A program made the translations under genes and the position numbers. From an uncultured Gemmatimonadales bacterium (lineage in GTDB: Bacteria > Gemmatimonadota > Gemmatimonadetes > Gemmatimonadales > Gemmatimonadaceae): a stretch of 64,000 nt of DNA. This document shows, piece after piece, positions 11,664 through 30,513 of the stretch (position 1 is its first letter; each line of letters starts with the position of its first letter). The stretch is taken from contig OY969695.1 in assembly GCA_963701965.1 (NCBI GenBank), positions 4,320,001 to 4,384,000 of the forward strand. The letters are read 5' to 3'. Under the pieces are notes generated by a model. The model had not been told where the DNA came from and made no database searches. It saw nothing but the letters and a program-made list of their open reading frames with translations.

Positions 11664-13754
11664 ATGACGACGGCGTGGCGGCCACCGGATACCGACGACG
11701 TCCACGATACGCTCCTCGAGTTCAACGCCCACGTGTTCGAGCTGGCCCGGCATCCCCGCACGCCGCTCGGCGAGCGGGTGCGGTTCCTGACGATTCTCGG
11801 CAGCAATCTCAATGAGTTCTTCACCGTGCACGTCGGCGAGGCGAAGGCCTGGCTCGCCGCCCAAGGCGCTTTCGGGGCCGATGGCGGCCCGCGCGCGGCG
11901 AGCGTCCAGGCATTGATCCGCGAGACCATGCAATCGGCGCGGGCGGCCGGCGCGCTGTTGCGGGGCGCGCGCGAGTGGTTTCGGAACGAATGCCGGCCGG
12001 CGTGCGCGGCAGCCGGGGTGCGGCTGCACCAATGGGATGAGCTCACCGATACATCGCGCGCGGCGGCCGCCGCGTTCTTCGACGCGCAAGTGCGACCCGC
12101 GCTCGGCAACGGGGTCCCGCTGCGTCCGGTGGGCCCCGACGGCCAGGGGATGCCGCACCTTGCCTCATTGGCCCTCGCCTTGGTGGTGACCGCGGATACC
12201 GACGACGCGCTGTACGTCATCCCGATTCCCGCGACGCTCTCACGGGCGGTGGAACTCATCCCCCATGCCGAATACATGGGACTCGAGGACTTGATCCGGG
12301 CGCACGCGGGGGTCCTGACGCCGGCCGGAGCCGGAGCGCACGCGTTCGTCGTCCGCGTGACGCGCGCGTCGGACACGCGACTCGGCCGGTCGCCGGCCGG
12401 TGATCCCGTCGAGACCGCGCGGGCTCTCCTGGCGCGGCGTGAGATGGCGCCGGTCGTGCGATTGGAAGTGAACTGCGCGATGCCGGACGCCGTCCGGAAG
12501 CGACTGCTGGTGCTCTTCCGCGCCGAAGCCCAAGCGGTCGGCGTGGAAGGGTCGACCCTCGACGCGTGCGACGTGTTCGAGACCGATGGCCCGGTCGTCT
12601 CGCTGGAGGGGCTGGATCGCGTGGCGTCCATTCCACGCACCGACTGGGGTTACCCCGCGTTCGCGGCCCGGACGCCGGTACCGGTGGAGCAGTCCCTGTG
12701 GGAGCGCCTGGGAAGCGGCGACGTGTTCGTGCATTTCCCGTACGACGCGTTCGCGTCCTCGATCGCACGGTTCTTCGACGAAGCCGCCGACGATCCGGAC
12801 GTCGTGGCGCTCCGGAGCACGATCTATCGGACGGATCGACACTCGCCGGTCGTCGTCGCCCTGGCGCGGGCGGCCCGGGCCGGAAAGGATGTGCTGGTCG
12901 TCGTCGAGCTGATGGCGCGGTTCGATGAGGCGAGCAATCTCGATTGGTCGCGGCATCTCTCCGAAGCCGGATGCCGCGTGGTGCACGCGCCGCCGGGTCT
13001 CAAGGTGCACGGCAAGATCGGGCTGGCGATCCGGCGCGAGGGTGGCGCCAACCGCGGCTACGGTTTCGTGAGCACGGGCAACCTCAATGCCGTGACCGCG
13101 ACCCGCTACACCGACTTTGCTCTGTTGACGGCGCGCTCCGACCTGGTCGGGGAAATCGCGACGGTGTTCGATGAAATCGGCTCGGGCGATATGAGCAACC
13201 GGTACACGCGACTGCTCGTCTCACCCACGACCATGCGGACCGCGTTGATCGCCCTCATCGAGCGCGAGGCATCGCGCGGCGCCGCGGGCCGCATTCGCGC
13301 CAAGCTCAATGGCCTCAATGACGATGATATCATCGAGTCCCTCTATGCCGCATCGCGGCAGGGGGCGCGGGTCGACCTCGTGGTGCGCGGCCTGTGCCAG
13401 TTGCGGCCCGGCGTCCCCGGCTTGTCTGATCACATCACCGTCTCCAGCATCGTCGGCCGGTTTCTGGAACACGGACGCATCTATGCGTTTGGGGGCGCGG
13501 GCGGCCCCATCGACTATTACATCGGTTCGGCGGACTGGCGCACCCGCAACATCGCGCATCGCGTGGAGGTGGCGGTGCCCGTCGAAGATCCGGACGCCCG
13601 CCAGCGGATCGAGGAACTGCTCGAGGCCGAGCTGACCGATCCCACGCGCTTCGTCATGCGGACGGATCGTTCGTATGGGCGGGCCGAGACCGACGCCGAG
13701 AGCGTGCAGGAGCGCTGGGTGTCCGGACTGCGTCAGCCGCCGGCGCTGGTGTAG
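11664..13754 (+). CDS. ppk1: Polyphosphate kinase 1
   Basis: NLNEFF, VHFPYDAF, TIYRT, VELMARFDE, LKVHGK (phospho-His), GRFLEHGR, GSADWRTRN..RVEV. Confidence 0.92.
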   Translation: MTTAWRPPDTDDVHDTLLEFNAHVFELARHPRTPLGERVRFLTILGSNLNEFFTVHVGEAKAWLAAQGAFGADGGPRAASVQALIRETMQSARAAGALLRGAREWFRNECRPACAAAGVRLHQWDELTDTSRAAAAAFFDAQVRPALGNGVPLRPVGPDGQGMPHLASLALALVVTADTDDALYVIPIPATLSRAVELIPHAEYMGLEDLIRAHAGVLTPAGAGAHAFVVRVTRASDTRLGRSPAGDPVETARALLARREMAPVVRLEVNCAMPDAVRKRLLVLFRAEAQAVGVEGSTLDACDVFETDGPVVSLEGLDRVASIPRTDWGYPAFAARTPVPVEQSLWERLGSGDVFVHFPYDAFASSIARFFDEAADDPDVVALRSTIYRTDRHSPVVVALARAARAGKDVLVVVELMARFDEASNLDWSRHLSEAGCRVVHAPPGLKVHGKIGLAIRREGGANRGYGFVSTGNLNAVTATRYTDFALLTARSDLVGEIATVFDEIGSGDMSNRYTRLLVSPTTMRTALIALIEREASRGAAGRIRAKLNGLNDDDIIESLYAASRQGARVDLVVRGLCQLRPGVPGLSDHITVSSIVGRFLEHGRIYAFGGAGGPIDYYIGSADWRTRNIAHRVEVAVPVEDPDARQRIEELLEAELTDPTRFVMRTDRSYGRAETDAESVQERWVSGLRQPPALV

Positions 13755-14521
13755 CGGCGGAGCGCGCTCGACCACAGCCACCGGGTGAGTCCGAGCGCGA
13801 TCGCGGCCACCAGGACGGCAATGAGCGCGATGCGCGGCGGGTACTGTCCGGTCAGCGCGGCCGCCGGAACCGTAGTCGTCCACGCGATCGGCAGGAGATA
13901 CACGAACAGGATGCGCAGGGCGCCGGGGTAAGCCGACACCGGATAGCGCGCCGCTTCGTACACGCTGTCGAACAGGACGGAGAGATTTTCCACGGCGACG
14001 AACCAGAATGCCGCGCTCATGAGGGTCAGCCACAGGGCGTAGACGAGCGCCGCCGCGGCGATGAACGTGATGCCGAACGCGGCGATCTGGACCACCGATG
14101 GCGCATGGCCCGATGCGCGCCACGCCGCGTAGCCCGCGATCGCGAGGCCGGCAATGACGTCGGCGAATCGCCACACGTCGAGCCGGCGAAACGTCGTGTA
14201 CAGCTGGGCATCGACGGGCCGGGTGAGTACGAGGTCGAGCGAGCCGGTGCGCACGGCGCTCGCGAGTTGACCAATGCCCGGCCGGAAGATCGCTTCGACG
14301 AGACCGGCCAGCGCGTTGAATACGCCGAGCAGCACGACGACCTGCCAGTAGCTCCAGCCGCCGAGACGTGTCGCGTGACTGAAGAAGAGGCCGAGCGTGA
14401 GCAGCGCCGTCAGGAGCCAGAACGCCGTGCCCAGCAGGCTGGCCACGAAGTTGCCCCGGTACTGCAGCTCTTCGGCCGCGTTGACGCGCCACAGCGCGGC
14501 GAGCACGCGCCACGTGATCAT
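13733..14521 (-). CDS. ABC-2 family exporter permease
   Basis: ATG at 14521. ELQYRGNF, VRTGSLDLVLTRPV, ARYPVSAYP, RRYTSAGG. Confidence 0.88.
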   Translation of the reverse strand: MITWRVLAALWRVNAAEELQYRGNFVASLLGTAFWLLTALLTLGLFFSHATRLGGWSYWQVVVLLGVFNALAGLVEAIFRPGIGQLASAVRTGSLDLVLTRPVDAQLYTTFRRLDVWRFADVIAGLAIAGYAAWRASGHAPSVVQIAAFGITFIAAAALVYALWLTLMSAAFWFVAVENLSVLFDSVYEAARYPVSAYPGALRILFVYLLPIAWTTTVPAAALTGQYPPRIALIAVLVAAIALGLTRWLWSSALRRYTSAGG

Positions 14522-15321
14522 CCGCCCACGGCTCCATAGCGGCGAATGCCGCGCCACCAGACCAACCGGTACGCGCCCCACCACACCACGCACCAGAGGA
14601 TCTGCGCGGCGAATCCACTGGCCAGGACATCGGCCGAGCGGGCCGTCCCGGTGAGGACATCGGCGGGGAAGGCGAGCATCGACGGAAACCAGAGCCAGTG
14701 CGCGACGCGCTGGACGCCCGCGGGAAGAAGCGTGAGCGGCGCGATGCGACCCGAGAGAAAGAGCGCGACGCCGAATTGCAACTCCGTCAGCGCCGTCGCC
14801 CGCGTCGTCCAGAACGCGAGGAGGCCGATCGCATAGCCGTTGAAGAACCGGATCCACGCCGCCAGCGCCACGGCGGCGGCCGCCAGCGCCCACCGGCCCG
14901 GGGCGAACGGCAGGCGGGCCGCGGGCCACAGGGCGGCGATCAGCACCCAGGCGGCGACCACGAAGATGGCGGCGCGGGCTTTGTAGGCGATGTTGTCGGC
15001 GATCGCTTCGTGCACGGGACTGATCGGGCGCGCGATGCGAAAATTCATCTCGCCCTCGCGGATCCAACTGTCAATGTACCAGGCGTCCCACGCCGCGGTG
15101 AGTTGGCCGATCAGTGTGACCGCGAAGAAGTAGCGGGCGAAATCCGTCTGGTCGTACCCGCCGACCGCACCGCTCCCGGCGATCGACCACCAGATCCCGA
15201 GCGCGACGGTCGGTTCGGCGATGCCCCACAAGAACCAGATCGCAATGGTGGCGCGGTATTGCAGGTCGACCAGCCAAGCGGCCCGCAGCAGCGCGGCGTA
15301 GCGCTGGATCCACACCGTCAT
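14518..15321 (-). CDS. ABC-2 family exporter permease
   Basis: LQYRA, IREGEMNFRIARP, LSGRIAPL.LLP, GIRRYGAVGG. Confidence 0.88.
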   Translation of the reverse strand: MTVWIQRYAALLRAAWLVDLQYRATIAIWFLWGIAEPTVALGIWWSIAGSGAVGGYDQTDFARYFFAVTLIGQLTAAWDAWYIDSWIREGEMNFRIARPISPVHEAIADNIAYKARAAIFVVAAWVLIAALWPAARLPFAPGRWALAAAAVALAAWIRFFNGYAIGLLAFWTTRATALTELQFGVALFLSGRIAPLTLLPAGVQRVAHWLWFPSMLAFPADVLTGTARSADVLASGFAAQILWCVVWWGAYRLVWWRGIRRYGAVGG

Positions 15322-16292
15322 TCGCGGAACGCCAGTTGGATCACTTCCTCAATGGGCGGGTCTTCGACCACGAGATCGGTGACGGGGACGGCGGCCAGCA
15401 ACCGCGCGCTGATCGCCGCGGCCTGGTCGCGCGGAATCTCCAGCTGGGCGCGCGGAAACGTGAAGTCGATGACGGTGCCGAACCCGGCGAGTTGCTGTCG
15501 CGTCACGCCGTCGCCGAGGACGAGCGCGAGCCGCTTGATCGGCTTGAGCCGCGCCGCCAGGGCGTCGAGCGCGCCATCGTACAGCAGGCGGCCGCGGTTC
15601 ATGGTGAGGACGCGCGACGCGAGCGCGGTCACGTCGGCCATGTAGTGCGACGTGAGCAGGATCGTCGCGCCGTGGCGATCGCGATACGCGGACAGGAACG
15701 CGCGGACGGCCGCTTGCGCGGTGAGGTCGAGGCCCAGGGTCGGCTCGTCGAGGAACAGGATTTCGGGCTGGTGGAGCAGGGCGGCGGCCAGCTCGCATTT
15801 CATCCGTTCGCCGAGCGAGAGCTGCCGCACGGGTTTGTCCACGATGTCGGCCAGGTCGAGGAGCGCGATCAGCTCGTCGCGGCGTGCCCGATACTCGGCG
15901 GCGCCGATCGCGTAGATCGCGCGATTGAGTTGGAACGTCTCGTCAGCCGGGAGGTCCCAGAGCAGCTGTTGTTTGTTGCCCAGCACGAGGGCAATGCGCC
16001 GCTTGAACGCCGACCGGCCGGCCGCGGGATCGAAGCCCGCGACGCGGACGTGGCCGCTGGTCGGGAACAACAGCCCGGTGAGCATCTTGAGCGTCGTCGT
16101 CTTGCCGGCGCCGTTCGGCCCGAGGAACGCCACGATCTCCCCGGGCTCGATCGAGAACGAGACGTCGGCCACGGCCTCGACCGACCGGTACGTCGGTCGC
16201 GCCAACGCGACGATCGCGCTCCAGAGACCCCTGGCCCGCACCTTCACCCGATAGACCTTGCCGAGTGTCTCCGCGACGATGATCGGTGGCAT
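15318..16292 (-). CDS. ABC exporter ATP-binding subunit
   Basis: Walker A GPNGAGKTT, signature LSLGERMK, Walker B ILFLDEP, TSHYM. ATG at 16292. Confidence 0.95.
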   Translation of the reverse strand: MPPIIVAETLGKVYRVKVRARGLWSAIVALARPTYRSVEAVADVSFSIEPGEIVAFLGPNGAGKTTTLKMLTGLLFPTSGHVRVAGFDPAAGRSAFKRRIALVLGNKQQLLWDLPADETFQLNRAIYAIGAAEYRARRDELIALLDLADIVDKPVRQLSLGERMKCELAAALLHQPEILFLDEPTLGLDLTAQAAVRAFLSAYRDRHGATILLTSHYMADVTALASRVLTMNRGRLLYDGALDALAARLKPIKRLALVLGDGVTRQQLAGFGTVIDFTFPRAQLEIPRDQAAAISARLLAAVPVTDLVVEDPPIEEVIQLAFRE

Positions 16293-16463
16293 GCGGAAGT
16301 ATGGCCCTCGCTGTCGCCGCTGGGATACGCGGAGTGCCCTCCGCCGAGGACAGCCTCCTCGACCCAATGGATGCGTGCATGGCATAACTGGCGACAGAGC
16401 AAACGGTTAGATAGGGGCGGATAACGGTTGCGCTAGGCGCGAATCTCGCTTCGCGCCCTTGGC

Positions 16464-17162: not shown

Positions 17163-18665
17163 ATGTTCTTCTGCCGAGGCGGGGAGTCTCACGCCTGGAC
17201 GGACTCCGATGATGCGGCCAAGTGTTGCAACGGCTATGTGAGGGCCGTGCGTGTCGCCCGTGACGCGGGCGGACACGTCGAGTTGGTCTACTACTGGCGC
17301 CCGTCCGCACCCGCGGCTCCCGCGCCGCGGACCGAGACCGCCGCGGCCGGCATCGCCGGCACGGTGACCCCGCGCGCGCCGTCGCCGGTGCTGACGGTGA
17401 GCGATGGCGCGGCTCGCTCGCACGGGACGGAAAGGACAGACGGGCAGGACGACGGCGCGTTGCGTCATGTCGCGTTCTTTCGCGCGCTGGGCGCCACGGA
17501 GGCGGGGACACCCGAGTGGGAAGCGACATCGGCCGGTCTGGTCGTGCTGCGACTGCTCGACCGGTGGGCCTGGCGCCACATTCCGGAGCGGGCGCCGACG
17601 TTTCGCGAGTTCGTCACGGTGCGGCGCGCCATCGCGCGCGTGCCGGCTGGCCCGGTGCGCGATGCCCTGGAGCTGTTGGCGGCCGCGGTCTCGGTGTTTT
17701 CCGGATCGCGGCCGGCGCCGGTGAACGATTGCCTCATGACGTACGCGCACGCGCTGCGCGATGCGGCGCAGTGGGGCCTCGCGGCCAATGTGTACGACAC
17801 GATCGTCGGCAACGCGCAGGGGACGGCGGCGGCCGCGCTCGTGCCGGAGTGCGCGGTGCGCGCCGCGTTCTGTCTCCGGATGTTGGGGCGGCTGGACGAC
17901 GCGGAGGCCGCGTATCGGCGGGGATTCGAGGTCGCCACGGAAAGCGGTGACCGGCGCAGCGCGCTCCTGGCGCGCATCGGTCTGGCGAGTGTGACCGCCC
18001 GCCGGGGCGCGCTCGCGGACGCGGAGCAGTTGCTCAATGACGTGATCGGAGAGGCGGCGGGGACGGGTCTCGACGCGGTACGGGCCGCGGCGTTGCACGA
18101 TCGTGGCGGCGTTGCGGTCCTGCGGCGGGAGTACGAGGCCGGGGCGCTGCTACTATATGAAGCCTTCGCGCTGTACCAGGATGCCGCGAACCGGGACCGC
18201 GCGCTCAACGACCTGGCGACCGCGTTGGCGAGCCTTGGCCTGCGCGGGGCGGCGCGGGACGCGTACTTCGTCCTGCGCGCGACGTCGAATCAACAGGATC
18301 TGCGGTGGTGGGCTGGGCTCAACCTCATGCGGTTGGCGGTCGGCGACCGGAATGAGGCGGAGTTCGAGCAGTATCGCGGCTTTCTCGTGGCGGAACGGTT
18401 GACCGGAACGCATGCGGCGCACTACGAGCTGTTTGTGGGTGAGGGCCACCGCGCGTTCGGACGGCGCGAGCGGGCGCGCAGCGCCTTCACGCGGGCGGTG
18501 GAGTTGGCGCGACGGTTTCGCGTCCCGTCGGTGCTGGCCAGCGCCGAGGCGGCGCTGGTAACTCCGGAGTCGGCGGCCGGGCGCCCGAGTTCGGAAGACG
18601 CGCCGGCCGGGGCGGTCGCGCGGATCGTGACCGCCATGCGTGCGCTGGCGGGCGCCGCGTCGTGA
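17163..18665 (+). CDS. TPR-like alpha-solenoid protein (paralog of 29392..30513)
   Basis: Repeated helical pairs (AFCLRMLGRLDDAEAAYRRG; LASVTARRGALADAEQLL; ALHDRGGVA). Start uncertain. Confidence 0.7.
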   Translation: MFFCRGGESHAWTDSDDAAKCCNGYVRAVRVARDAGGHVELVYYWRPSAPAAPAPRTETAAAGIAGTVTPRAPSPVLTVSDGAARSHGTERTDGQDDGALRHVAFFRALGATEAGTPEWEATSAGLVVLRLLDRWAWRHIPERAPTFREFVTVRRAIARVPAGPVRDALELLAAAVSVFSGSRPAPVNDCLMTYAHALRDAAQWGLAANVYDTIVGNAQGTAAAALVPECAVRAAFCLRMLGRLDDAEAAYRRGFEVATESGDRRSALLARIGLASVTARRGALADAEQLLNDVIGEAAGTGLDAVRAAALHDRGGVAVLRREYEAGALLLYEAFALYQDAANRDRALNDLATALASLGLRGAARDAYFVLRATSNQQDLRWWAGLNLMRLAVGDRNEAEFEQYRGFLVAERLTGTHAAHYELFVGEGHRAFGRRERARSAFTRAVELARRFRVPSVLASAEAALVTPESAAGRPSSEDAPAGAVARIVTAMRALAGAAS

Positions 18666-19495
18666 CAATGCGGGTCGAGTTGGGACGGGAGGCGGCGCCG
18701 ATGGACGTGGCCTTCGCGCTGCCGCCCGCGGGCGTCATCGCGTTGCTGTCCGATCGCTTGCTGCAGACGCTCAAGGTCGTCGTCGCCGGGCGCCACAATG
18801 TGATCGCCGTCGAGACGCTCGCCGAGCTGGACGCGGTGCTCCGGGCCGGGGTCGCGGATTGCGTAGTGGTGGACCCGCAAGGGCCGGGACGGCCGGGGGC
18901 CCAGAGTCTGACGCCGCTCTTGGCGCGGTATCCCGGGGTCCATGTGGTCGTGTATACGACTCTGACCGCGGCGTCAATGCACGACGTCGCGGCAATGGGG
19001 TTGCGCAATGTGGTGCTGTTCAACTGCGACGATCGGACGGCCTATTTCCGCGACTTGTTGGAGACGGCGCCGTCGGCGGCGTTGACGGACTCGGTACTGG
19101 CGCACATCGCGCCGGCGCTCTCGCAGTTGCGGCCGGAGTTGCGCCACGCGATCGCCGAATTGTTCCGTGCGCCGGAAACAGTGCGAACGGTCGAAGCCAT
19201 GCGCCGGATCGCCGGGCTCTCACGCATGACGGTCGGGCGCGCGTTGACGCGGGCCGGGCTCGTCTCGCCGGGGCCCATGATGCGGGCGGCGCGGGTGCTG
19301 CGGGTCTACCACTATGTGCGCCGTGGCGGTCTGCGGCTCAAATGGATCGCGCCGCGCCTTGGCTACAGCTCGCCGCGCAAGCTCGCCGACGAGTGCAAAG
19401 CGGTCGCCGGTTTGACGCCGAGGCTGCTGGTCAAGACGGTCGAGCCCGAGGAGTTCGCCGCGTACGTGGCGCGCCGACTCCAGCGCGGGTACTGA
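18662..19495 (+). CDS. AraC-type HTH regulator with N-terminal receiver-like domain
   Basis: DCVVVDP...VVVYT receiver-like region; C-terminal IAPRLGYSSPRKL...VAGLTP matches the AraC second HTH. GTGA overlap with the upstream gene. Confidence 0.75.
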   Translation: MTMRVELGREAAPMDVAFALPPAGVIALLSDRLLQTLKVVVAGRHNVIAVETLAELDAVLRAGVADCVVVDPQGPGRPGAQSLTPLLARYPGVHVVVYTTLTAASMHDVAAMGLRNVVLFNCDDRTAYFRDLLETAPSAALTDSVLAHIAPALSQLRPELRHAIAELFRAPETVRTVEAMRRIAGLSRMTVGRALTRAGLVSPGPMMRAARVLRVYHYVRRGGLRLKWIAPRLGYSSPRKLADECKAVAGLTPRLLVKTVEPEEFAAYVARRLQRGY

Positions 19496-19662: not shown

Positions 19663-20022
19663 GTGTCGCTCACACCCGAGTTGATGCTCGCTGCGCTGTT
19701 TCGGCGTGGTCCCTCGCCGTCGCGGCTACCAGTGCCGCTGTCGTCGGCCGTGCGGTTGACCGGCGCTCGCCACGTGTCGCGCGCGACGCAGCATGGCGAG
19801 ACGGTGCTGCTCGACCGGCACGGTGGCGTCTACTACGCGCTCAACGAGAGCGGGGCCTTCATCTGGGAGATGCTGCGCGGCGGGACGACGTTCGCGGCGA
19901 TCGTCGAGGCGCTCGACGAACGGTATGACGCGCCGCGGGCACAGCTGACGGACGACGCGCGGGCGCTGCTCGACGCGTTGCTGGCCGCGCGTCTGGTGGA
20001 GGCGGAGGGCGCTCCGGCATGA
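19663..20022 (+). CDS. Lasso peptide B1: PqqD-family RiPP recognition element
   Basis: ETVLLDRHGGVYYALNESGAFIWEML...IVEALDERYDA...LLDALLAARLV. Start could be 19681 or 19684. Confidence 0.92.
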   Translation: MSLTPELMLAALFRRGPSPSRLPVPLSSAVRLTGARHVSRATQHGETVLLDRHGGVYYALNESGAFIWEMLRGGTTFAAIVEALDERYDAPRAQLTDDARALLDALLAARLVEAEGAPA

Positions 20023-20399
20023 AGCGGGTCGGTCTGCCGCAGGCGGCGTGCGTCGTGGTCGCCATCAAGGTGCTCTTGATGGTCTTGGGGTTTGCCCGGG
20101 TGCTGCGCCTGCTGGAGTGGCGCGTGCGGCGCAGCCCCGTGAACGCGGAGCCGGAGCGGCCGGCGGTCGAGGGCGTCGCGCACGCGGTGGTCGCGGCGGC
20201 GATCGTCGTACCGGCGCGCGTCGAATGCCTCGAGCAATCGCTCGCGCTCTGGTTCCTGCTGCGGCGGCGCGGCGTCGGGGCGGAACTGGCATTCGGCGTG
20301 CGGCAGTTTCCGTTTGGCGCGCACGCGTGGGTAACGTATCGCGGCGAGCCGGTGAACGAGGACGTGGACGCGCTGCGCCAGTACGCCGTGTTCGCCTGA
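20019..20399 (+). CDS. Lasso peptide B2: transglutaminase-like leader peptidase
   Basis: CLEQSLAL (catalytic Cys), L.FGV, FGAHAWV (catalytic His), GEPVNE. ATGA overlap with B1. Confidence 0.92.
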   Translation: MKRVGLPQAACVVVAIKVLLMVLGFARVLRLLEWRVRRSPVNAEPERPAVEGVAHAVVAAAIVVPARVECLEQSLALWFLLRRRGVGAELAFGVRQFPFGAHAWVTYRGEPVNEDVDALRQYAVFA

Positions 20400-20419
20400 C
20401 GCGCATGCCTGTGAGGCGT

Positions 20420-22279
20420 ATGCCGGCATTTCTGGGTCTGGTCCGCCTCGCGGGTGGCCGCGTCGACGACACGCTGGACGCGCTCCGCGCATCCCACGCC
20501 GAGGGCTGGTCCTGGTGTGACTCAACGGATCGCTCGGCCGCGCTCGGTCATACGACAGGGGACCCGCGGGCCACGCTGGCACGGGCCGGCGACTGGATGG
20601 CGGTCGGGATGGCGCGCCTCGATAATCGCGACGAGATCCGTGCGTGGTCGGGCGCGCCGGCTGATATCTCCGACTTGCAGGTGATACTGGCGGGGATCGC
20701 GGCGCGCGGCGTTCCCGGTATCCGGAGCATCCTTGGCGACTTCGCGATCGTCGCCTGCCATGCGCGCTCGCGCGACACGATCGTCGCGCGCGACGCGTTC
20801 GGGGTCAAGCCGCTGTTCTACCGCGCGCTGCCGGAAGGGCTGGCGTTGAGCTCCCACGCAGCGCCGCTCGCGGGGGACGCGGACTACGACGCGGACTACG
20901 TCGCCGAGTTCATCCTCAGCGGATTCGACCGCGATCACCGCACGCCGTGGCGCGGGGTCCGCGCGGTTCCCCCGGGGCACTGCATGGTGGTCCGCGATGG
21001 AGTAACGACGCTGACGCGCTATTGGTCGGCGTCGCAGTTCCCGCCGCGGGAGCTGGCGCCGCGCAATGGGGCAGGTGAGGGGAGCCGCGCGGCGTTCCGC
21101 GCGCTGCTGGAGACGGCGATTGCGTCCAACGTGTCGGGGGCTGACGACACCTGGTCGCAGCTGTCCGGTGGGCTCGACTCGTCGACGCTCGTGTCGGTCG
21201 CCGAGACGATGCGCACGGAGGGGAGTGTCCGCGGTGGGGTGGCGGGGGTCATCACCATGGTGGACTCGTTGGATGACGAGTGGCCCTATGCGCACGCGGT
21301 GGCCGAGCGCTATGGGTTGCGGCACGAGGTCGTCAAGGACTACTGGCTGTGGCAGGATGACGGGACGGCTCCGCCGCGGAATGATGTGCCGGACTCGTTG
21401 TATCCGTTCTACGCGCGCAACCGGCGGTTGTGCGAGATCGTGAAGTCGGCGGGCGGGCGGGTGCTGTTGAGCGGGGTGGGGCCGGATCACTATCTAGCTG
21501 GCAACCGGTACTTCTTCGCGGACTGGTTGGCCCAGGGGCGTGTGCTCACGGCGGCGCGCGAGATGTGGCGGTGGTCGAATCTGGCCAAGACCGGGTTTCT
21601 CCGGTTTGCGCTCGACAACGCGATCATGCCGTTGGCGCCGGCTTCGCTCCGCCGCCTGGGCGCGCCGCGGTGGGCGCAGGTGTACGACTGGATCGCGCCG
21701 GACTTTGCGCGGCGGCTCGGGCTCAACGAGCGCACCACCTGGGGCCGGGCGCTCGATGCGCCTGCCGGGCGGAAATACGCCGGGCAGGTCGAGGTCGACA
21801 TGACGCACCTCCCGGTGTGCATCGATCGCGGGGCGTTCGAGGATGGGATCGAGATGCGATACCCGTACCTCTATCGTCCGCTCGTCGAGTACTGCCTGCA
21901 ACTCCCCCGGGAGCTCCGGACGCAGCCCTTTGCCCGCAAGTGGGTGATGCGCGAGGCGGCGAAAGGGATCGTTCCCGAGATCGTGCGCGTGCGCCGGACC
22001 AAGGGCGCCATCAGCGGCCGCACCCGCTGGTCGCTCCGCCGCGAGTCCGCCGTGGTCGACTCGCTGCTGTGCGACTCTATTCTCGCCGAGCTCGGGTGCA
22101 TCGATCCTGTCAAGCTGCGGCGCGCGCTGGATCAGGCCATCGAAGGGGACGACAAAGTCCTGTTCGCCGCGGTCCGCACGTTGGCCCTCGAGACTTGGCT
22201 GCGCGTCACGAATGACCGGTGGGCTGATTGCGGGGCGCCCACTGAATCTCAAGATCTCGCACTCGCCCCCGCCGGGTGA
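20420..22279 (+). CDS. Lasso peptide C: asparagine-synthetase-like macrolactam cyclase
   Basis: ARLDNR, GDFA, ARDAFGVKPLFY, PP-loop LSGGLDSS, LSGVGPD, RYPYLYRPLVE. No N-terminal catalytic Cys. Start 20405 or 20420. Confidence 0.9.
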   Translation: MPAFLGLVRLAGGRVDDTLDALRASHAEGWSWCDSTDRSAALGHTTGDPRATLARAGDWMAVGMARLDNRDEIRAWSGAPADISDLQVILAGIAARGVPGIRSILGDFAIVACHARSRDTIVARDAFGVKPLFYRALPEGLALSSHAAPLAGDADYDADYVAEFILSGFDRDHRTPWRGVRAVPPGHCMVVRDGVTTLTRYWSASQFPPRELAPRNGAGEGSRAAFRALLETAIASNVSGADDTWSQLSGGLDSSTLVSVAETMRTEGSVRGGVAGVITMVDSLDDEWPYAHAVAERYGLRHEVVKDYWLWQDDGTAPPRNDVPDSLYPFYARNRRLCEIVKSAGGRVLLSGVGPDHYLAGNRYFFADWLAQGRVLTAAREMWRWSNLAKTGFLRFALDNAIMPLAPASLRRLGAPRWAQVYDWIAPDFARRLGLNERTTWGRALDAPAGRKYAGQVEVDMTHLPVCIDRGAFEDGIEMRYPYLYRPLVEYCLQLPRELRTQPFARKWVMREAAKGIVPEIVRVRRTKGAISGRTRWSLRRESAVVDSLLCDSILAELGCIDPVKLRRALDQAIEGDDKVLFAAVRTLALETWLRVTNDRWADCGAPTESQDLALAPAG

Positions 22280-22297
22280 AATTCATTCGGAGAGGAA

Positions 22298-22435
22298 ATG
22301 CAAAGCCAGACGACGAAAACCGGCTATGCTGCGCCGAAGCTCGTGACGCAGGGGCCAGTGGGTCAGCTTACTCTCGGAACTGCCACGCTGACGGGGGAAC
22401 CCATTGCAGGCCTGCACATCAGCGGCGAAGTGTGA
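22298..22435 (+). CDS. Lasso peptide precursor A (45 aa), absent from the ORF track
   Basis: Purine-rich RBS ggagagga. MQSQTTKTGYAAPKLVTQGPVGQLTL|GTATLTGEPIAGLHISGEV*: YxxPxL...G motif, Thr at -2, core Gly1 and Glu8. Confidence 0.92.
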   Translation: MQSQTTKTGYAAPKLVTQGPVGQLTLGTATLTGEPIAGLHISGEV

Positions 22436-22439
22436 AAAC

Positions 22440-22479
22440 ACTGACAGAGGGCGGCAGTTGCGTGCCGCCCTCTGTCAGT
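22440..22479. terminator. Perfect 17-bp hairpin shared by the convergent lasso and receptor operons
   Basis: actgacagagggcggca-gttgcg-tgccgccctctgtcagt. Overlaps the receptor stop codon; TGTTTT follows on the minus strand. Confidence 0.75.
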
Positions 22480-25144
22480 ACCCGACACGGACGCCGATCG
22501 ACGCAGTTCGTCCTGGCGTCGCGTACGCGGCGTTCTGCTCAATTGCGTGATTGTTCGCAAGGTTGTCCACGCTAAGAAATCCCGACAGGCGCCGATCGAT
22601 CTGTTGATCGACCGAGAGTCTGAGTTTGACGAATCCCGGAAATCTCTCCAGATAAGCTCGCGGCGTGAGCAACGGTTGCAGGCCGGCAAGCGCACTGTCC
22701 TGCTTTAGCACATTCTGGCTCGTCCAGTAGCCAATATATGTCGCGCCTGCGGCGATCTCGCCGCCCTTCCATGGGCTAGCACCAACCATCAACCCGCCCG
22801 AAGTGAAGGGTACGAGTTGGGCCTGATCGCCGACTCGATAGCTACCATTGTAGTCCGGTCCCAGGTTGGCGATGCGACTCAATGTGTACGAGAACTCGGC
22901 GCTCAGTCGTATCACAGAGATCTGTGCCGAGGCACATGTCTCGAGACCTCTGTTGTCAATCCGGCCAAGATTCTGATATTGAAGTCCGGCTGTATTCGGC
23001 GTGCCTGCCGGAACGATCTCCTGAATGATGAGATTGCGTGCCTGTTGGTTGTAGTATGTGGCTGACAGAGAGCCAATGCGTCCAAAATCAACGTCGATAC
23101 CGACGTCGCCGCCGAGTTGTCGTTCAGGCGCGAGGGCGGCATTCGGGAGTTGGGACGTCCCGCTGATGGTCTGGGCCATGTGCTGTGATGGCAGCCCAGG
23201 TTGAATACCCTCTCCATACGACGCGCGCGCCTTGAACACAACATCGCTAACCGAGTGAACGAACGACAGTCCGAAGCGGGGGGCCACGGCCGTGCCGTAA
23301 GCTGGTCCAATACCGCTGTTGCGATCGGCACGGATTCCTGCGGTCAGAAATAACTGTTCGCGAACCCCGAGCTGCATCTGGCCGAAGGCTCCCGTATTGC
23401 TCACGGGATCGCGATCTAGCAGTGCAACCCCGACAGGAGAGGGGACCGGCACTAATCCGATTACGCTCGGCAAGCCGCTGGCGACAAATTCGTCTATCGT
23501 GCGTTCGTAGTGGTCGAATCCCGCCGTCGCGACCGCGCGCAACGCACGACTCATCAGCCAGGTCGCGGATGTATTGTACGCGATCGACGCCTTGCCTACC
23601 GACCGATCCAGTGCAGCGAGCAGAGTATCGGTCGGTGTCGTGAGTTGCGGCGACGTACGTGCGTATTCAGTCTCTGATCGATCGTATCCGATCGTGAGAT
23701 TGTGCGTCCACCAACTCGACGCGCGATAGTTGAGATTGATTCCATAGGTCTGTTCATGCTCGGCCTCCGTCACGTTCTGAGGCTTCGCGAACTGCGGGAT
23801 GCCGGTGGCCACCTGCTGTGGTGACTCGACGAGGGGAAAGGTCCGCTGTAGGTACCGCGCCGAGAGTTGGATCGACAGTGGCCCTTGATCGAGATGAACT
23901 CCGCCATAGGCGCCGGGGTCTGACGAGTAGTAACCGGGCAGCCAGGCACCGACATGTCGGTACGAGGCCCCAAGGTTGTATCCCGCCCCCTCGCGCGCGC
24001 CTTCCAGCGAGACCGCGTATTGCTGCTGCAACGCGCCGGCGTCCTTGTCCGGGCCCTGGACGACGCCCTCGGCGATGGAGGCGTTGAGGGTAGGACGATC
24101 GGGCGCGCCAATGCCGTGTTTCGTGAAGATCTGCATGACGCCGCCACTGGCGTCGGACCCATAGATGGTCGACGCTTGCGGCCCGCGGATCACTTCGACG
24201 TGGTCGATGCTGTTGACGTCAACCGCGGCGTAGGCGAAGTCCGCCACTTCCACGCCGTCGATGTACGTCTTGATGTTGTTGACGTCGAAGGAGTTGATCC
24301 CCCGCACGGTGATCGTGCTGTAGTAGTCGAAGTTGCCTTGCGCCCACGAGATGCTGCCGGGCACGGAGCCGCGGAAGATCTCGTCCACGCGGGCGTAGTG
24401 CTGCGTCTGGAACTCGGCCGCCGTGATGACGCTGATGGGCGTCGGCAGCTCCTTTTCCTGCGTCGGCACGATCGTCCCGGTGACGACGACGCGCTCCAGT
24501 GAGCCGGTAAGCTGCTCGAGCCCGAAATCCACGGTCGGGCGCTCGCCTGGCGCGATGGTGACGGTGCGGGCCGCCGGGTGGTAGCCGAGGAGGCGGACCC
24601 GGGCCGGGAAGGTGCCGGCCGGCACCGAGTCCAGGCGGTAAGTGCCGCTGTCCGACGACGTGGCCCGCTGCCAGAGGCCATCGAGGATGACCGTCGCCCC
24701 CGGCAACAGTCTCCCGGTGCGCGCATCGCGCACGCGGCCCGTGATCGCCAAGGGCGCCGCCGGCGCGATGATGATGGCCGAGTCGGCCGCCAACTTCGCA
24801 CCCAGTCCCGTGCCCCGCAACACGATGCCGAGAACGCGGCCGAGCGAGGCGTGCGCATCGTGGAACGACACGCGCTGCGGCGCCGCGCTCACCACCGCCG
24901 TCTCGAAGTCGAACGGGATCCCGGTCGAATCGCGGATCAGATCCAGCGCCTGCCGTACCGTGACCCCGCGAAAATCAACCGCGATGGCCCGGTCCAGCGA
25001 TGGCGCCGGCGGCACTGCCGCCGCCGGACGCGCGCGAGCGTCCGGGGTGACCGGTGATTGAGCAACAGCAACGTGCGATTCGATCCCTCCGCTGACCGAC
25101 AGGAACGTCAGCAGGGGAACCCATCGACGAACGGACCAACGCAG
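22475..25144 (-). CDS. TonB-dependent receptor/transducer (STN + CarboxypepD-like + plug + barrel)
   Basis: STN-like N-terminus, TonB box LERVVVTG, plug IDHVEVIRGPQASTIYGSDASGGVMQIFTK, C-terminal NLAN...PGRTASIGVRVGY. The signal peptide is only present if started at CTG 25144. Confidence 0.9.
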   Translation of the reverse strand: MRWSVRRWVPLLTFLSVSGGIESHVAVAQSPVTPDARARPAAAVPPAPSLDRAIAVDFRGVTVRQALDLIRDSTGIPFDFETAVVSAAPQRVSFHDAHASLGRVLGIVLRGTGLGAKLAADSAIIIAPAAPLAITGRVRDARTGRLLPGATVILDGLWQRATSSDSGTYRLDSVPAGTFPARVRLLGYHPAARTVTIAPGERPTVDFGLEQLTGSLERVVVTGTIVPTQEKELPTPISVITAAEFQTQHYARVDEIFRGSVPGSISWAQGNFDYYSTITVRGINSFDVNNIKTYIDGVEVADFAYAAVDVNSIDHVEVIRGPQASTIYGSDASGGVMQIFTKHGIGAPDRPTLNASIAEGVVQGPDKDAGALQQQYAVSLEGAREGAGYNLGASYRHVGAWLPGYYSSDPGAYGGVHLDQGPLSIQLSARYLQRTFPLVESPQQVATGIPQFAKPQNVTEAEHEQTYGINLNYRASSWWTHNLTIGYDRSETEYARTSPQLTTPTDTLLAALDRSVGKASIAYNTSATWLMSRALRAVATAGFDHYERTIDEFVASGLPSVIGLVPVPSPVGVALLDRDPVSNTGAFGQMQLGVREQLFLTAGIRADRNSGIGPAYGTAVAPRFGLSFVHSVSDVVFKARASYGEGIQPGLPSQHMAQTISGTSQLPNAALAPERQLGGDVGIDVDFGRIGSLSATYYNQQARNLIIQEIVPAGTPNTAGLQYQNLGRIDNRGLETCASAQISVIRLSAEFSYTLSRIANLGPDYNGSYRVGDQAQLVPFTSGGLMVGASPWKGGEIAAGATYIGYWTSQNVLKQDSALAGLQPLLTPRAYLERFPGFVKLRLSVDQQIDRRLSGFLSVDNLANNHAIEQNAAYATPGRTASIGVRVGY

Positions 25145-25209
25145 AGCGACGCCTCCCGCGGATCATAACGGAGACCGGTTTTTTCGCTCCCCACATTACA
25201 CGTTGGACC

Positions 25210-26322
25210 TTATCGCCGAAACAGTCGAACTTCCCGCCCGTGGCGCTCGTACGCCAATCCCCGCACGGTCTGGCGCAACGCATCCAGCACCTGCACATCC
25301 GTGCCGCCATTGACCGTAAATGTGACTGTGCGGGCAGCCAACACCGTATCGTCGATGCGGAACTGAAGATCGTACGCCCGTCCGATCTCCTCCGCTACAT
25401 CCCGCAACGGCATGTCCGTGAACACACGCCGCCCGTGCGTCCACTCGAAATACCATGGCGACACCGGCGTCACCACCGTCTTGCCATGCGCCACGTCGAT
25501 CACGCCAATGTACCCACTCCGCACCACCGTCTCAGCGCCACCCACGCGGATCGACACACTGTCCGTCTGCACGGCCACGCGCGGCGGCGCGCCGGCATAC
25601 GCGCGCACATCGAACACCGTACCCAGATCCCGCGCCTCTACGCCCGCGGCCCACACGATAAACCGCCGGTCCGTCCGGTGCTCGACGTGGAACGAGGCCT
25701 GGCCCACGAGTGACACCACGTGATCCGCGCCGCCCCGCTCGAACCCGAACCGCAGCTCGCTCGCCGGCGCCAGCACCACGTCAGTGCCATCCGGTAAGTG
25801 CACCGATCGCGTCTCGCCCCGGTTCGTGGCGTACGCCAGCGACGACGTCGGCGCCGACACCCGCTCTGGCTCCCGCACTGGCGGATGCGTCTCGCGCCGT
25901 ACTACCAGGGCCGTCGCCACCGCGACTACGATACCGCCCGCGACCCCCGAGAGCGTGCCCAGCCGACGCCAGCGCCGCGCGCGGCGCACCCGCGGACCGT
26001 GGGCGAGCCCGCCGTCGATGACCCGCAGATGCTCCACGCCGCGTCCACCCACGCGGACGCGGTCGCCCTCCTGTCCCGCGATCCGATCCTGCAGCTGTTC
26101 CCACGCCTCCTCGGGATCGACTTCGAGCGGTTCCGGCCGCGGACTCAGGCGCGCCCACACCTTCCGGTACGCGCGCACGTACCGCTGCAACCCCTCGTCA
26201 TCAGCGAGCCAGCGCTCCACCAAGCGCCGCTCCGGCAACGTGCTGAGGCCGTCGAGGTAGCGGTGGATCGCCGCCCACCGCAACCGCTCCAACTCCTCAT
26301 CCCGCGGGTTGTCGTTGATCAT
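25210..26322 (-). CDS. FecR-family anti-sigma/transducer
   Basis: N-terminal IHRYLDG..VERWL, single TM helix, TNRGETRSVHLPDGT.V.LAPASEL, LVGQASFHV, RDLGTVFDV, WTHGRRVFTDMPL. Confidence 0.92.
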   Translation of the reverse strand: MINDNPRDEELERLRWAAIHRYLDGLSTLPERRLVERWLADDEGLQRYVRAYRKVWARLSPRPEPLEVDPEEAWEQLQDRIAGQEGDRVRVGGRGVEHLRVIDGGLAHGPRVRRARRWRRLGTLSGVAGGIVVAVATALVVRRETHPPVREPERVSAPTSSLAYATNRGETRSVHLPDGTDVVLAPASELRFGFERGGADHVVSLVGQASFHVEHRTDRRFIVWAAGVEARDLGTVFDVRAYAGAPPRVAVQTDSVSIRVGGAETVVRSGYIGVIDVAHGKTVVTPVSPWYFEWTHGRRVFTDMPLRDVAEEIGRAYDLQFRIDDTVLAARTVTFTVNGGTDVQVLDALRQTVRGLAYERHGREVRLFRR

Positions 26323-26331
26323 CGGCTTTGG

Positions 26332-27006
26332 CTATAAAGACGCGGGACGGCGCCCGTCTGCGTATGACACGTCCGGCAGCCAGGCCGCCAGCTCCCGCCT
26401 CAGCAATGTGTACGCCTGGTGGAGTTGCGTGTCGACGGTTCGAACCGAGACACTCATCAGTTCGGCGATTTGTGCGTTTGTCATCTGCCCCACGCGATGC
26501 AAGACCAGCGTCTCGCGCCGCCGGAGCGGCAACTTCGCGATGGCCCGGGCGATCGCGCTCTGCAACTCGGCGGCGGCGATGGTCGCCTCGACCGGAAGGC
26601 GCGCGGGAATCTCGGGAATCATCCCCGGGCCGAACGTCCCGCGCGATCGCAACACACGCGCGATCCAAGAGCGTTCGACGCGCTGGTGACGGAGGGTCGA
26701 GATGGCGCGCTTGCGGACGGCGCCATACAGATAGGCGATGAGCGACAGCCGGACTGTGAGCCCGTCCCGCTTGTCCCAGAGGTTGAACATCACCTCCTGC
26801 ACGATCTCCTGGGCATCAGCCCGGGACTCCACCAATCCGTTGGCGACACTGACCAGCCACGGTTGATAGTGGAGAAACGCGTCGCGAAACGCGCCCTCCT
26901 CGCCCCGACGGATGCCTTCGACCCACAGCCGATCAATGGCGGCCTGGTCGGGCAGCGTCGCGATCGCCGACGCCGACCGCTCCGAGAAGCGCGGCCGGCG
27001 CGTCAC
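26332..27006 (-). CDS. ECF sigma-70 factor (FecI-like)
   Basis: ADAQEIVQEVMFNLW (region 2), AIAKLPLRRRETLVL..MTNAQIAELMSVSVRTVDTQL (region 4). Confidence 0.92.
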   Translation of the reverse strand: MTRRPRFSERSASAIATLPDQAAIDRLWVEGIRRGEEGAFRDAFLHYQPWLVSVANGLVESRADAQEIVQEVMFNLWDKRDGLTVRLSLIAYLYGAVRKRAISTLRHQRVERSWIARVLRSRGTFGPGMIPEIPARLPVEATIAAAELQSAIARAIAKLPLRRRETLVLHRVGQMTNAQIAELMSVSVRTVDTQLHQAYTLLRRELAAWLPDVSYADGRRPASL

Positions 27007-27074: not shown

Positions 27075-27284
27075 TCACGCCGCGGGCGGCGAGTGGTGCA
27101 GGCCGAGCTCGCCGACCGGCTCCACCCAATCCCGTACCCGCTGGCCTGTGATGCGATTGGCGCGCATCGCTTCGGCGAGGTACCGCAGTCCCTCGAAATA
27201 GGCGACCATCTCGCTCTCGGCCCGCACCCGGGCCTCGAAGATGGGACGGTCGGCCGTGTCGAACGCCCTATAGATCCAATTCAT
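27075..27284 (-). CDS. Small hypothetical protein
   Basis: 69-aa ATG ORF with GAGG upstream, directly upstream of the ECF gene. Confidence 0.45.
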   Translation of the reverse strand: MNWIYRAFDTADRPIFEARVRAESEMVAYFEGLRYLAEAMRANRITGQRVRDWVEPVGELGLHHSPPAA

Positions 27285-29391: not shown

Positions 29392-30513
29392 ATGCGCGCA
29401 CCGGACGCCGTGGATCACCCGTACCGCGCGCCGCATGTAGCGCCGTCTGTCAGACTGCCGAGCCTTCGGCTCTCCGACACGACGCGCGCTGATGACGGCC
29501 CCGAACCGGCGCGCGCGCTCCTCGCCCACGCCGATCAGTTCCGTCATGCCGAATCCTGGTTGCCGGCGATCGCCGCCTACCGCGCCGCCATCGCGGGCGC
29601 GACCGACTCGACCGATCACATGCTCCTCGCCGAGGCCCACCTCCGCCTCGGCTTCTGCCTGCGCATGGCGGGCGACCTCGGCGCCGCCGCCGAGGCCTAC
29701 GCCGCGGCCAACACCCACGCCCAGGCCACGCGCGACATCCACCGCGCGCTCCTCTCCCGCGTCGGTGCCGCCGTCGTCGTCGCCAGTCGCGGCAACCTCC
29801 CGGCTGCCGCGATGATGCTGGAGGCCGTCGTCCTCGAGGCCGAGGCCCTCGTCTCGACGCAACCAGGCCTCGTCGATGCCATTGCCCGGGCCAAGCACGA
29901 CCGCGGCACGATCGCGCACGACCGCGGCGACCCCGCACGCGCCGTCGTCGACCTCTACGATGCCTATCATCTCTATGGCGACTCGACCCAACGCGACCGC
30001 GTCCTCATCGACCTCGCCCGCGCCTTCGCCGACCTCGATCTGATCGACGTCGCGCGCGACGCCCTCCGGTTGTGCCACGCCGGCGCAGCAGGCCCGGCGG
30101 CGCGTACCACCGCCGCCATCAACCTGTTGGACATCGCCCAACGCGAGGGCGACGAGGCGATGTTCGAGCACCACCGCCGCGCCCTCGCCCACGACATGCT
30201 CGTGCCGCGCCACGCCGCGTTCTATCACCTTTTCGCGGGCGAAGGCCTCCGGCGATTCGGGCACCTGGGCGCCGCGCACGCCGCGTTCGCCCAAGCCCGC
30301 GATATCGCCGCCCATCACGGGTTGGGCGCGGTGCTCATTCGCGCCGACGCCGCGCTCGCCGATGGCACCGGGGCCGATAGCCCGCCGCATGCCCACGCCC
30401 CGCGCACCGCACCCGCGCCGGTGCAGCGCGTCGCCGCCGGCATCGCCGCCATGTTCGCCTCGAGCCCCTACGCCGATCACCCTTGGCCAACGATCGTCGT
30501 CGACGAGCGGTAG
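29392..30513 (+). CDS. TPR-like alpha-solenoid protein (paralog of 17163..18665)
   Basis: GFCLRMAGDLGAAAEAY, AKHDRGTIA, RDRVLIDLA, FYHLFAGEGLRRFG align by eye with the 17 kb protein. Confidence 0.7.
   Translation: MRAPDAVDHPYRAPHVAPSVRLPSLRLSDTTRADDGPEPARALLAHADQFRHAESWLPAIAAYRAAIAGATDSTDHMLLAEAHLRLGFCLRMAGDLGAAAEAYAAANTHAQATRDIHRALLSRVGAAVVVASRGNLPAAAMMLEAVVLEAEALVSTQPGLVDAIARAKHDRGTIAHDRGDPARAVVDLYDAYHLYGDSTQRDRVLIDLARAFADLDLIDVARDALRLCHAGAAGPAARTTAAINLLDIAQREGDEAMFEHHRRALAHDMLVPRHAAFYHLFAGEGLRRFGHLGAAHAAFAQARDIAAHHGLGAVLIRADAALADGTGADSPPHAHAPRTAPAPVQRVAAGIAAMFASSPYADHPWPTIVVDER

Follow-up and report, generated by a model that had tools for sequence, protein, structure and literature searches.

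Does the short open reading frame (ORF) behind the cyclase gene of a Gemmatimonadales lasso operon encode a lasso peptide, and what would such a peptide do when its gene runs tail to tail into that of a TonB-dependent transducer? We addressed both questions in the 64,000-nucleotide stretch of DNA analyzed here, referred to as the window, where an original prediction made from the sequence had placed a hidden precursor. The features of the locus are collected in Table 1.

Table 1. Features of the lasso locus in the window.
Feature	Position	Strand	Remarks
TPR protein	17163-18665	+	upstream of B1
AraC-type HTH regulator (HTH_18)	18662-19495	+	upstream of B1
B1, RiPP recognition element (PqqD family)	19663..20022	+	PF05402 E 1.8e-21; NF033530 61.9 bits (under the cut-off of 70)
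B2, leader peptidase (transglutaminase-like)	20019..20399	+	NF033537 101 bits (over the cut-off of 33); PF13471
C, lasso cyclase (asparagine-synthetase-like)	20405..22279	+	PF00733 E 3e-34; best NCBIfam NF033535, 157.7 bits (under the cut-off of 525)
Shine-Dalgarno-like GGAGAGGA	22289..22296	+	5' of precursor ATG
Lasso precursor A	22298..22435	+	leader 22298-22375 (26 aa), core 22376-22432 (19 aa), stop TGA; Gly1-Glu8 macrolactam predicted
Hairpin, 17 bp perfect	22440..22479	.	between converging precursor and receptor; z = -6.8, 0/200 shuffles as stable
TonB-dependent transducer	22475..25144	-	signal peptide, STN, CarboxypepD_reg, plug, 22-strand barrel; proposed peptide receptor
FecR-like anti-sigma factor	25210..26322	-	PF04773, PF16344; same place in orthologous loci
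ECF sigma factor (FecI-like)	26332..27006	-	PF04542, PF08281

The window ORF is a real precursor gene, closing a B1-B2-C operon. Its translation matched the predicted one exactly (45 aa plus TGA), and the purine-rich ribosome-binding site and 18-nt spacing that had been described were both located: the cyclase stop occupies 22277-22279, the ATG follows 18 nt later, and the Shine-Dalgarno-like octamer lies 5' of it. A GGAG likewise stands 5' of the orthologous precursors. The leader holds Y10-x-x-P13-x-L15-x-x-x-G19 and Thr at -2, and the core begins with Gly1, carries Glu8 and an 11-residue tail, and has no Cys, Phe, Tyr, or Trp, all as claimed; the monoisotopic mass of the cyclized peptide, recomputed as 1803.937 Da ([M+2H]2+ 902.976), agreed with the earlier hand calculation. 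When all six frames of the 5.1-Mb genome were scanned with a strict motif (Y/W-x2-P-x-[LIVM]-x3-G...T-x-[GASC]-x5-7-[DE]), the precursor ORF was the single match. A loose lasso motif matched 15 times. Three of these matches have an SD-like site, and among the three are the window ORF and the first precursor in the second lasso cluster of the genome. The overlapping 99-codon ORF 22276-22575 was considered as a real gene and rejected, in line with its earlier description as spurious; its GC3 is 0.54 versus 0.69 in the precursor, and the precursor frame is the conserved one. No Pfam or NCBIfam family was matched by the window ORF or by six aligned homologs.

A lack of conservation beside homologous cyclases had been named as the finding that would speak against the precursor, and conservation is what was observed. 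All five same-genus genomes examined contain an orthologous cyclase (55-65% identity) with a homologous precursor directly after it, followed by the convergent receptor. Among 43 metagenome loci, the best 23 of which were annotated, 11 were orthologs (55% or more identity); two of these end inside the cyclase, and the remaining nine, four of which repeat genome alleles, all have the precursor directly 3' of it. The precursor is under purifying selection. Across nine distinct orthologs, a set of ungapped 39-codon alleles from which the window's own 45-codon allele is left out, substitutions at codon positions 1, 2, and 3 numbered 253, 276, and 598, and pN/pS was 0.36. Within the core, the nine alleles gave a pN/pS of 0.70 at ring positions 3-6 versus 0.26 in the rest.

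A profile search recovered 41 proteins among 58 candidates, all named merely "hypothetical protein", and these 41 homologs have 41 different cores. Thr-2, Leu-1, Gly1, Gly7, Glu8, and Gly12 are invariant in all of them, Pro9 and His14 each occur in 39, and Cys is found at no core position. Position 13 is occupied by Tyr (24 cores), Leu (9), or Phe (8). Most cores are 15 residues long (34 of 41), the others having 17 (4) or 19 residues (3). In a 40-sequence alignment, the Tyr and Pro of YxxP and Thr-2 are invariant. The YxxPxLxxxG leader motif that had been recognized in the window ORF thus held for the family in part: YxxP, Thr-2, and Leu-1 are kept, while the xLxxxG portion is not, position -11 being Ala in 32 and position -7 Gly in 19 of the 41 proteins.

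According to passages of two earlier papers, class II lasso peptides are marked by YxxP, a penultimate Thr, an acceptor at positions 7-9, bulky plugs, and no disulfide (PMC6784204, PMC7549694); the precursor family carries these marks, which places it among class II lassos as characterized there. The proposed 8-residue Gly1-Glu8 ring is supported by the presence of both residues in all 41 cores, and the precursor very likely encodes a class II Gly1-Glu8 lasso peptide. Of the three plug candidates put forward, Leu13 and His14 remain good ones, whereas Ile15 is the weakest because position 15 varies and can be Ala (3 of 41 cores). Since 34 cores end at residue 15, the SGEV tail of the window core is probably dispensable, Leu13 and His14 are the likely plugs, and the mature product may well be a trimmed form; without SGEV its calculated mass is 1431.77 Da ([M+2H]2+ 716.89). 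We infer a loop from Pro9 to Gly12 with Leu13 and His14 positioned at the ring.

The precursor and its enzymes resemble the fusilassin/fuscanodin-TfuB1 type of lasso with split B1/B2, as described in passages of PMC6784204 and PMC7549694, in the YxxP leader, penultimate Thr, Gly1, acceptor at positions 7-9, lack of a disulfide, and use of an RRE, a peptidase, and a cyclase. They differ in that the core is unrelated to the named peptides found, and in that, in most alleles, the leader is without the Leu of YxxPxL and the core is 15 residues long. The earlier view that the core matches no described peptide was borne out, as a PDB sequence search with the precursor profile gave only chance matches (E >= 0.099) and a full-text search for core motifs gave 0 papers. 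On this basis the peptide is very likely a new class II lasso, though tables of predicted precursors (RODEO, LassoPred) could list its cores.

The biosynthetic genes of the window retain the expected catalytic residues. B2 has its Cys (ECLEQS), His (HAW), and Asp (NED) motifs, and the cyclase has the ATP-binding motif SGGLDSS and no N-terminal Cys; B1 may instead begin at 19684, where an ATG lines up with that of its orthologs. In a family-wide search of 401 genomes, whose tallies take in the genomes marked unpublished G012, G161, and G321 (used for these tallies alone), the B2 family was matched over the cut-off in 261 and the barrel in 170. Many of the weaker lasso-B2-like genes among the 261 may lie outside lasso clusters. 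In G003 (L034:9362-11108), the orthologous cyclase is frameshifted near residue 240, possibly through an assembly error, and several other receptors of that genome are also broken into short frames.

The TPR-AraC pair is a possible regulator of the operon, though it belongs to a module present in multiple copies in the genome. Copies of this module (window 17163-19495 and 29392-30513), in which the TPR protein has a small Cys-containing N-terminus, account for about 17 TPR and 7 AraC-like genome matches, often paired, and the module also occurs near 6 of 21 related lasso clusters. No GntR-like regulator was found 5' of the precursor, a place occupied by the cyclase, with TPR and AraC upstream of B1. 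No dedicated ABC exporter lies between B1 and the sigma gene. The ABC-2 transporter at 13733-16385 was considered as an exporter and rejected, its ATPase (15318-16385) being unmatched in the orthologous loci of G001, G003, and G004. A scan for sigma-70 promoters and terminators was uninformative at the locus.

Downstream, in a region that the original prediction did not mention, the precursor converges on the receptor gene across 39 nt, and all 10 orthogroup loci measured have a hairpin-forming gap of 32-54 nt at this place. The window hairpin is likely a shared terminator, one without a T-run. Translation of the receptor probably starts at the CTG at 25144: GGGAGG lies 7 nt upstream, the signal peptide predicted from this start ends AVA/QS, and 7 of 8 aligned loci retain GGGAG together with the CTG. 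The STN domain scored 30.1 bits, over the cut-off of 28.4, and the structure prediction returned a 22-strand barrel with a plug (pLDDT 88.9).

In cell-surface signaling of the FecA-FecR-FecI kind, the STN domain relays through FecR to the sigma factor. The window encodes the features of a FecA-type transducer, namely an N-terminal STN domain, a plug, a 22-strand barrel, and adjoining FecR and ECF sigma genes, and in its barrel and plug it is likewise similar to the receptor of the microcin J25-FhuA complex (PDB 4cu4), which is among the fold matches of the model. Unlike the known cases, in which a lasso peptide hijacks the iron receptor of its victim, the receptor here is encoded by the producer, beside the precursor. 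A complex prediction with the receptor (675 aa) and precursor residues 16-45 scored 0.00 in two runs, the linear stand-in being one that cannot represent a threaded product. Alignment of the upstream regions of the receptor and B1 revealed no shared promoter motif. The low GC3 in the barrel half was considered as a sign of recent transfer specific to the window genome, an explanation rejected on finding a similar drop in the orthologs. Upstream of the ECF sigma gene, a 69-aa ORF of no known family (27075-27284, minus strand) is conserved with synonymous variation in G001, G003, G004, and L059.

To place the receptor in context, we considered the 28 best barrel matches outside the orthogroup (all with E 1.3e-73 or better). 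A B2-C operon with precursor-like ORFs faces 21 of these closest homologs; five are cut by contig ends, and two are without lasso genes in the DNA examined. The receptor clade is tied to lasso operons across several genera, in 21 of 23 assessable loci. Beside weaker barrel homologs, lasso genes were found in 0 of 14 loci of a chosen sample.

In 20 of the 21 lasso-facing relatives, an S9 peptidase gene separates the receptor from the precursor; the remaining one has a BNR-repeat protein there. The S9 calls come from tblastn for all loci, with PF00326 confirmed on the nine scanned and NF033523, the lasso isopeptidase model, reaching 46-162 bits on the seven scanned (cut-off 400). Given the 32-54 nt separating precursor and receptor at the 10 orthogroup loci measured, no peptidase is present there. 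Across the window genome (G000), no protein exceeded the NF033523 cut-off for a lasso isopeptidase (best 116.9 of 400 bits); the genome has many S9 proteins, one of them in the second lasso cluster. Loci without S9 group as a single clade in the receptor tree (51 rows, quick tree) and again in the cyclase tree (42 rows), each time with an SH-aLRT of 99, and in both trees this clade sits among S9-bearing loci. The simplest reading is that the S9 gene was lost once, a loss argued from parsimony because the trees are only midpoint-rooted.

Several observations were made on the S9-bearing side. At L140:7841-9784 and L149:10373-12328, a BNR-repeat (propeller) protein replaces or accompanies S9 behind the receptor. 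Many precursors of the S9-bearing Gemmatimonadaceae clusters (L137-L162) begin with unusual residues and terminate in a tail of the G-[ST]-[VLI]-G-[FY]-x-[LIV] type. This tail is missing from the S9-less family, a hint that S9 might process or recognize the tail and not the ring; the L042 and L043 precursors, however, come with S9 and are without that tail. The second lasso cluster of the window genome (L037; G000:C1:2890000-2908000) encodes a 1115-aa TonB-dependent receptor, a 449-aa protein without a Pfam family, and an S9 peptidase, and this receptor side faces B1-B2-C and two precursors with cores of about 40 residues that have Glu9 and long acidic tails. The cluster is adjoined by a Ser/Thr kinase and an ABC exporter.

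These arrangements can be compared with the isopeptidase-type clusters of Proteobacteria, which combine lasso genes, an isopeptidase, a TonB-dependent transporter, and sigma/anti-sigma genes, and whose function is still called enigmatic in passages of a 2022 review (PMC9266682). Examples given in parts of that review and of a further paper are astexin-2/-3 with AtxE2, sphingopyxin I, benenodin-1, and the caulosegnins, with rubrinodin having an ABC transporter as well as an isopeptidase (PMC9266682, PMC11006600). The S9-bearing relatives (20 of 21) share the layout outlined in that review, while the seven of their S9 proteins that were scanned stay far under the cut-off of the isopeptidase model. 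The window operon is similar in being class II with a Gly1 core, in having no exporter, and in lying beside a TonB-dependent transporter and sigma/anti-sigma genes (22475-27006, minus strand). In contrast, it has no peptidase in the 39 nt between precursor and receptor, its B1 and B2 are split, its leader carries YxxP, its precursor follows C, a TPR-AraC pair lies upstream with no GntR found, and the phylum is Gemmatimonadota. A cluster with a receptor-sigma module and without a peptidase was not found described in the literature searched, which included passages of PMC13352647, PMC11006600, and bioRxiv 10.1101/2023.06.21.545946. Likewise, no characterized lasso peptide from Gemmatimonadota was found in the literature searched, where parts of one paper mention the phylum in genome counts (PMC11316326). 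We therefore regard the precursors as a new lasso family, in an isopeptidase-type cluster without its peptidase.

Comparison of strains disclosed that variation along the locus is uneven. DNA identity of G001 to G004 and L054 was 0.91-0.98 across AraC-B1-B2, fell to 0.76-0.94 in C and to 0.61-0.76 in precursor and barrel, and was mostly 0.84-0.98 from the receptor N-terminus through sigma. Barrel identity is only 70-95% among strains with 97-100% identity in the AraC and B1 proteins; the more distant L059 (AraC and B1 85-91%) has 88-91% identity to one barrel group. As a control, reciprocal-best pairs of TonB-dependent receptors were compared over the last 500 columns, drawing on the lasso locus and 10 of the 11 plug matches in G004, and on part of the 36 in G001 and of the 40 in G003. 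The lasso receptor was the most divergent pair between G004 and G001 (71% versus 85-99% in nine others) and between G004 and G003 (71% versus 89-98% in eight others). Between G001 and G003 it was the third most divergent of 19 (86%), two controls being lower (72% and 83%).

In tree comparisons, the barrel rejects the strain group defined by AraC and B1 (AU p 3.6e-5), and AraC, B1, and B2 together reject the barrel group (AU p 0.007), which was named after the barrel tree had been seen. The barrel is the only one of nine regions that tracks core similarity (Mantel rho 0.59, p 0.0065 with eight related sequences, or about 0.06 corrected for nine tests). Neither half of the cyclase correlated with core similarity (Mantel p 0.23 and 0.11; eight sequences), and the cyclase, equally adjacent on the other side of the precursor, does not follow the barrel. 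Cores with Gln or Arg at position 5 go with one barrel clade (support 99) and Leu5 cores fall outside it, a pattern noticed post hoc. Core and barrel similarity correspond only loosely: between G001 and L054, 12 of 15 core residues and 74% of the barrel are identical, whereas for G001 and L061 the figures are 8 of 15 and 87%.

The divergence of the barrel is not enriched in its extracellular loops, the two barrel groups having an identity of 0.72 for loops, 0.70 for strands, and 0.51 for periplasmic turns, which looks like block exchange of old alleles and not like loop-focused selection. As precursor and barrel are neighbors, a recombination block can move both without a functional link. The divergent precursor-barrel block and the conflict of the barrel tree with the neighboring genes nonetheless fit a peptide-receptor specificity cassette, and these comparisons suggest that strains exchange precursor and receptor jointly.

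A hypervariable block of peptide and receptor-binding sequence within conserved flanks is known from peptide loci such as agr of staphylococci and comQXPA of Bacillus. Held against this pherotype pattern, in which peptide and receptor co-vary, our locus has the variable block, the conserved flanking genes, and the tree conflict, with a core-barrel correlation that is moderate, not loop-enriched, and confounded by linkage. It differs from those systems, which use Gram-positive histidine kinases and thiolactone or prenylated peptides, in pairing a lasso with an outer-membrane transducer, and its specificity is putative.

These observations suggest how the locus could operate. B1 would bind the YxxP leader, B2 would cut after Thr-Leu, and C would close Gly1 onto Glu8; the chemistry of these families and the invariance of the residues make leader cleavage and cyclization almost certain. 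The tail would then thread the 8-residue ring and be held there by Leu13 and His14, the Pro9-Gly12 segment forming the loop and SGEV probably being trimmed or irrelevant, and such threading with plugs at 13 and 14 seems fairly likely. The peptide would leave the cell from a cluster that encodes no exporter and bind the barrel and plug of the neighboring receptor, which, judging from gene context and co-inheritance, is probably its cognate partner. The STN domain would relay the event via FecR to the ECF sigma factor, as FecA does. Without an S9 peptidase, the lineage would have no cluster-encoded ring opening or cargo release, and the absence of this enzyme favors signaling over cargo delivery. 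Precursor and barrel, exchanged as one block, would define specificity types. On the sequence data we judge it an evenly balanced call that the class II product is the ligand of the tail-to-tail transducer and acts as an allele-specific signal, not as an antibiotic; the complete route, with allele-specific signaling through FecR and sigma, is plausible at somewhat less than even weight. An S9 enzyme encoded elsewhere, in the second lasso cluster or at another place, could act in trans, which counts against the signaling interpretation.

A related alternative, rather unlikely in our estimation, is that the peptide is a siderophore-like carrier that binds a metal or another cargo, is re-imported by the neighboring receptor, and induces its own uptake genes, with release occurring without a cluster peptidase or in trans. 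This "catch and release" is the standing hypothesis for isopeptidase-type clusters in passages of PMC9266682 and PMC11006600. Siderophore uptake uses the receptor-FecR-sigma arrangement seen here, 39 of 41 cores keep the near-invariant His14, and the window genome is rich in S9 proteins, including the one in its second lasso cluster. However, the release enzyme is the one gene absent here, and known isopeptidases act only on their cognate peptide according to parts of PMC9266682. The core, moreover, offers a single His and no free acid but Glu18, which lies in the tail absent from most alleles, and 41 different cores from 41 matches would be unneeded for binding one metal, though cheater avoidance could drive diversity.

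We consider it unlikely that the product is an ordinary lasso, such as a narrow-spectrum antimicrobial, and the receptor an inherited neighbor, whose barrel would diversify under pressure from phages or bacteriocins and carry the adjacent precursor with it. The even spread of barrel divergence would suit such a history, as would a core-barrel correlation that is moderate and borderline once corrected, and single control receptors that are also strongly divergent. It sits poorly with the persistent association of the receptor clade with lasso operons in several genera (21 of the 23 loci that could be assessed) and with the retention of an intact receptor, FecR, and sigma factor in loci without the S9 gene. 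An immunity gene and an ABC exporter are also missing from the cluster (the ABC-2 genes nearby do not lie beside the orthologs), and isopeptidase-type lassos are mostly without antimicrobial activity in the account given in passages of PMC9266682.

That the TonB-dependent protein serves the peptide as an exit through the outer membrane, and not as sensor or importer, appears very improbable. Export by TonB-dependent proteins has precedent, and this role would agree with the lack of an exporter in the cluster and with an ABC ATPase match in only 6 of 21 related clusters; on the other hand, the STN domain, FecR, and sigma factor point to inward signaling, and no cluster gene would carry the peptide across the inner membrane. 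Finally, that the ORF is a chance ORF or a relic is scarcely credible, for although it matches no Pfam or NCBIfam family and its homologs are named only hypothetical proteins, it has the unique strict motif, the Shine-Dalgarno site, the position, the purifying selection, and 41 homologs with invariant ring residues.

The preferred reading, that the product is an allele-specific signal for the neighboring transducer, bears on a wider idea. The standing explanation of clusters that join a lasso to a TonB receptor and sigma/anti-sigma genes needs the isopeptidase to release cargo; a lineage that keeps the receptor and signaling genes without the peptidase separates the two functions naturally. 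At least eight natural peptide-receptor allele pairs exist within otherwise near-identical loci, and these are suited to cross-specificity tests. A broader proposal, which we advance only tentatively, is that this Gemmatimonadaceae genus uses 15-19-residue lassos as strain-specific signals, each read by its own transducer-FecR-ECF sigma set, with core and barrel forming an exchangeable cassette similar to agr or comQXP and derived from an isopeptidase-type cluster by loss of the peptidase. At minimum, the finding contributes a family of small Gly1-Glu8 lassos, with 41 members, from Gemmatimonadota; should the receptor recognize its peptide in an allele-specific manner, the locus would represent lasso-based signaling in a Gram-negative phylum.
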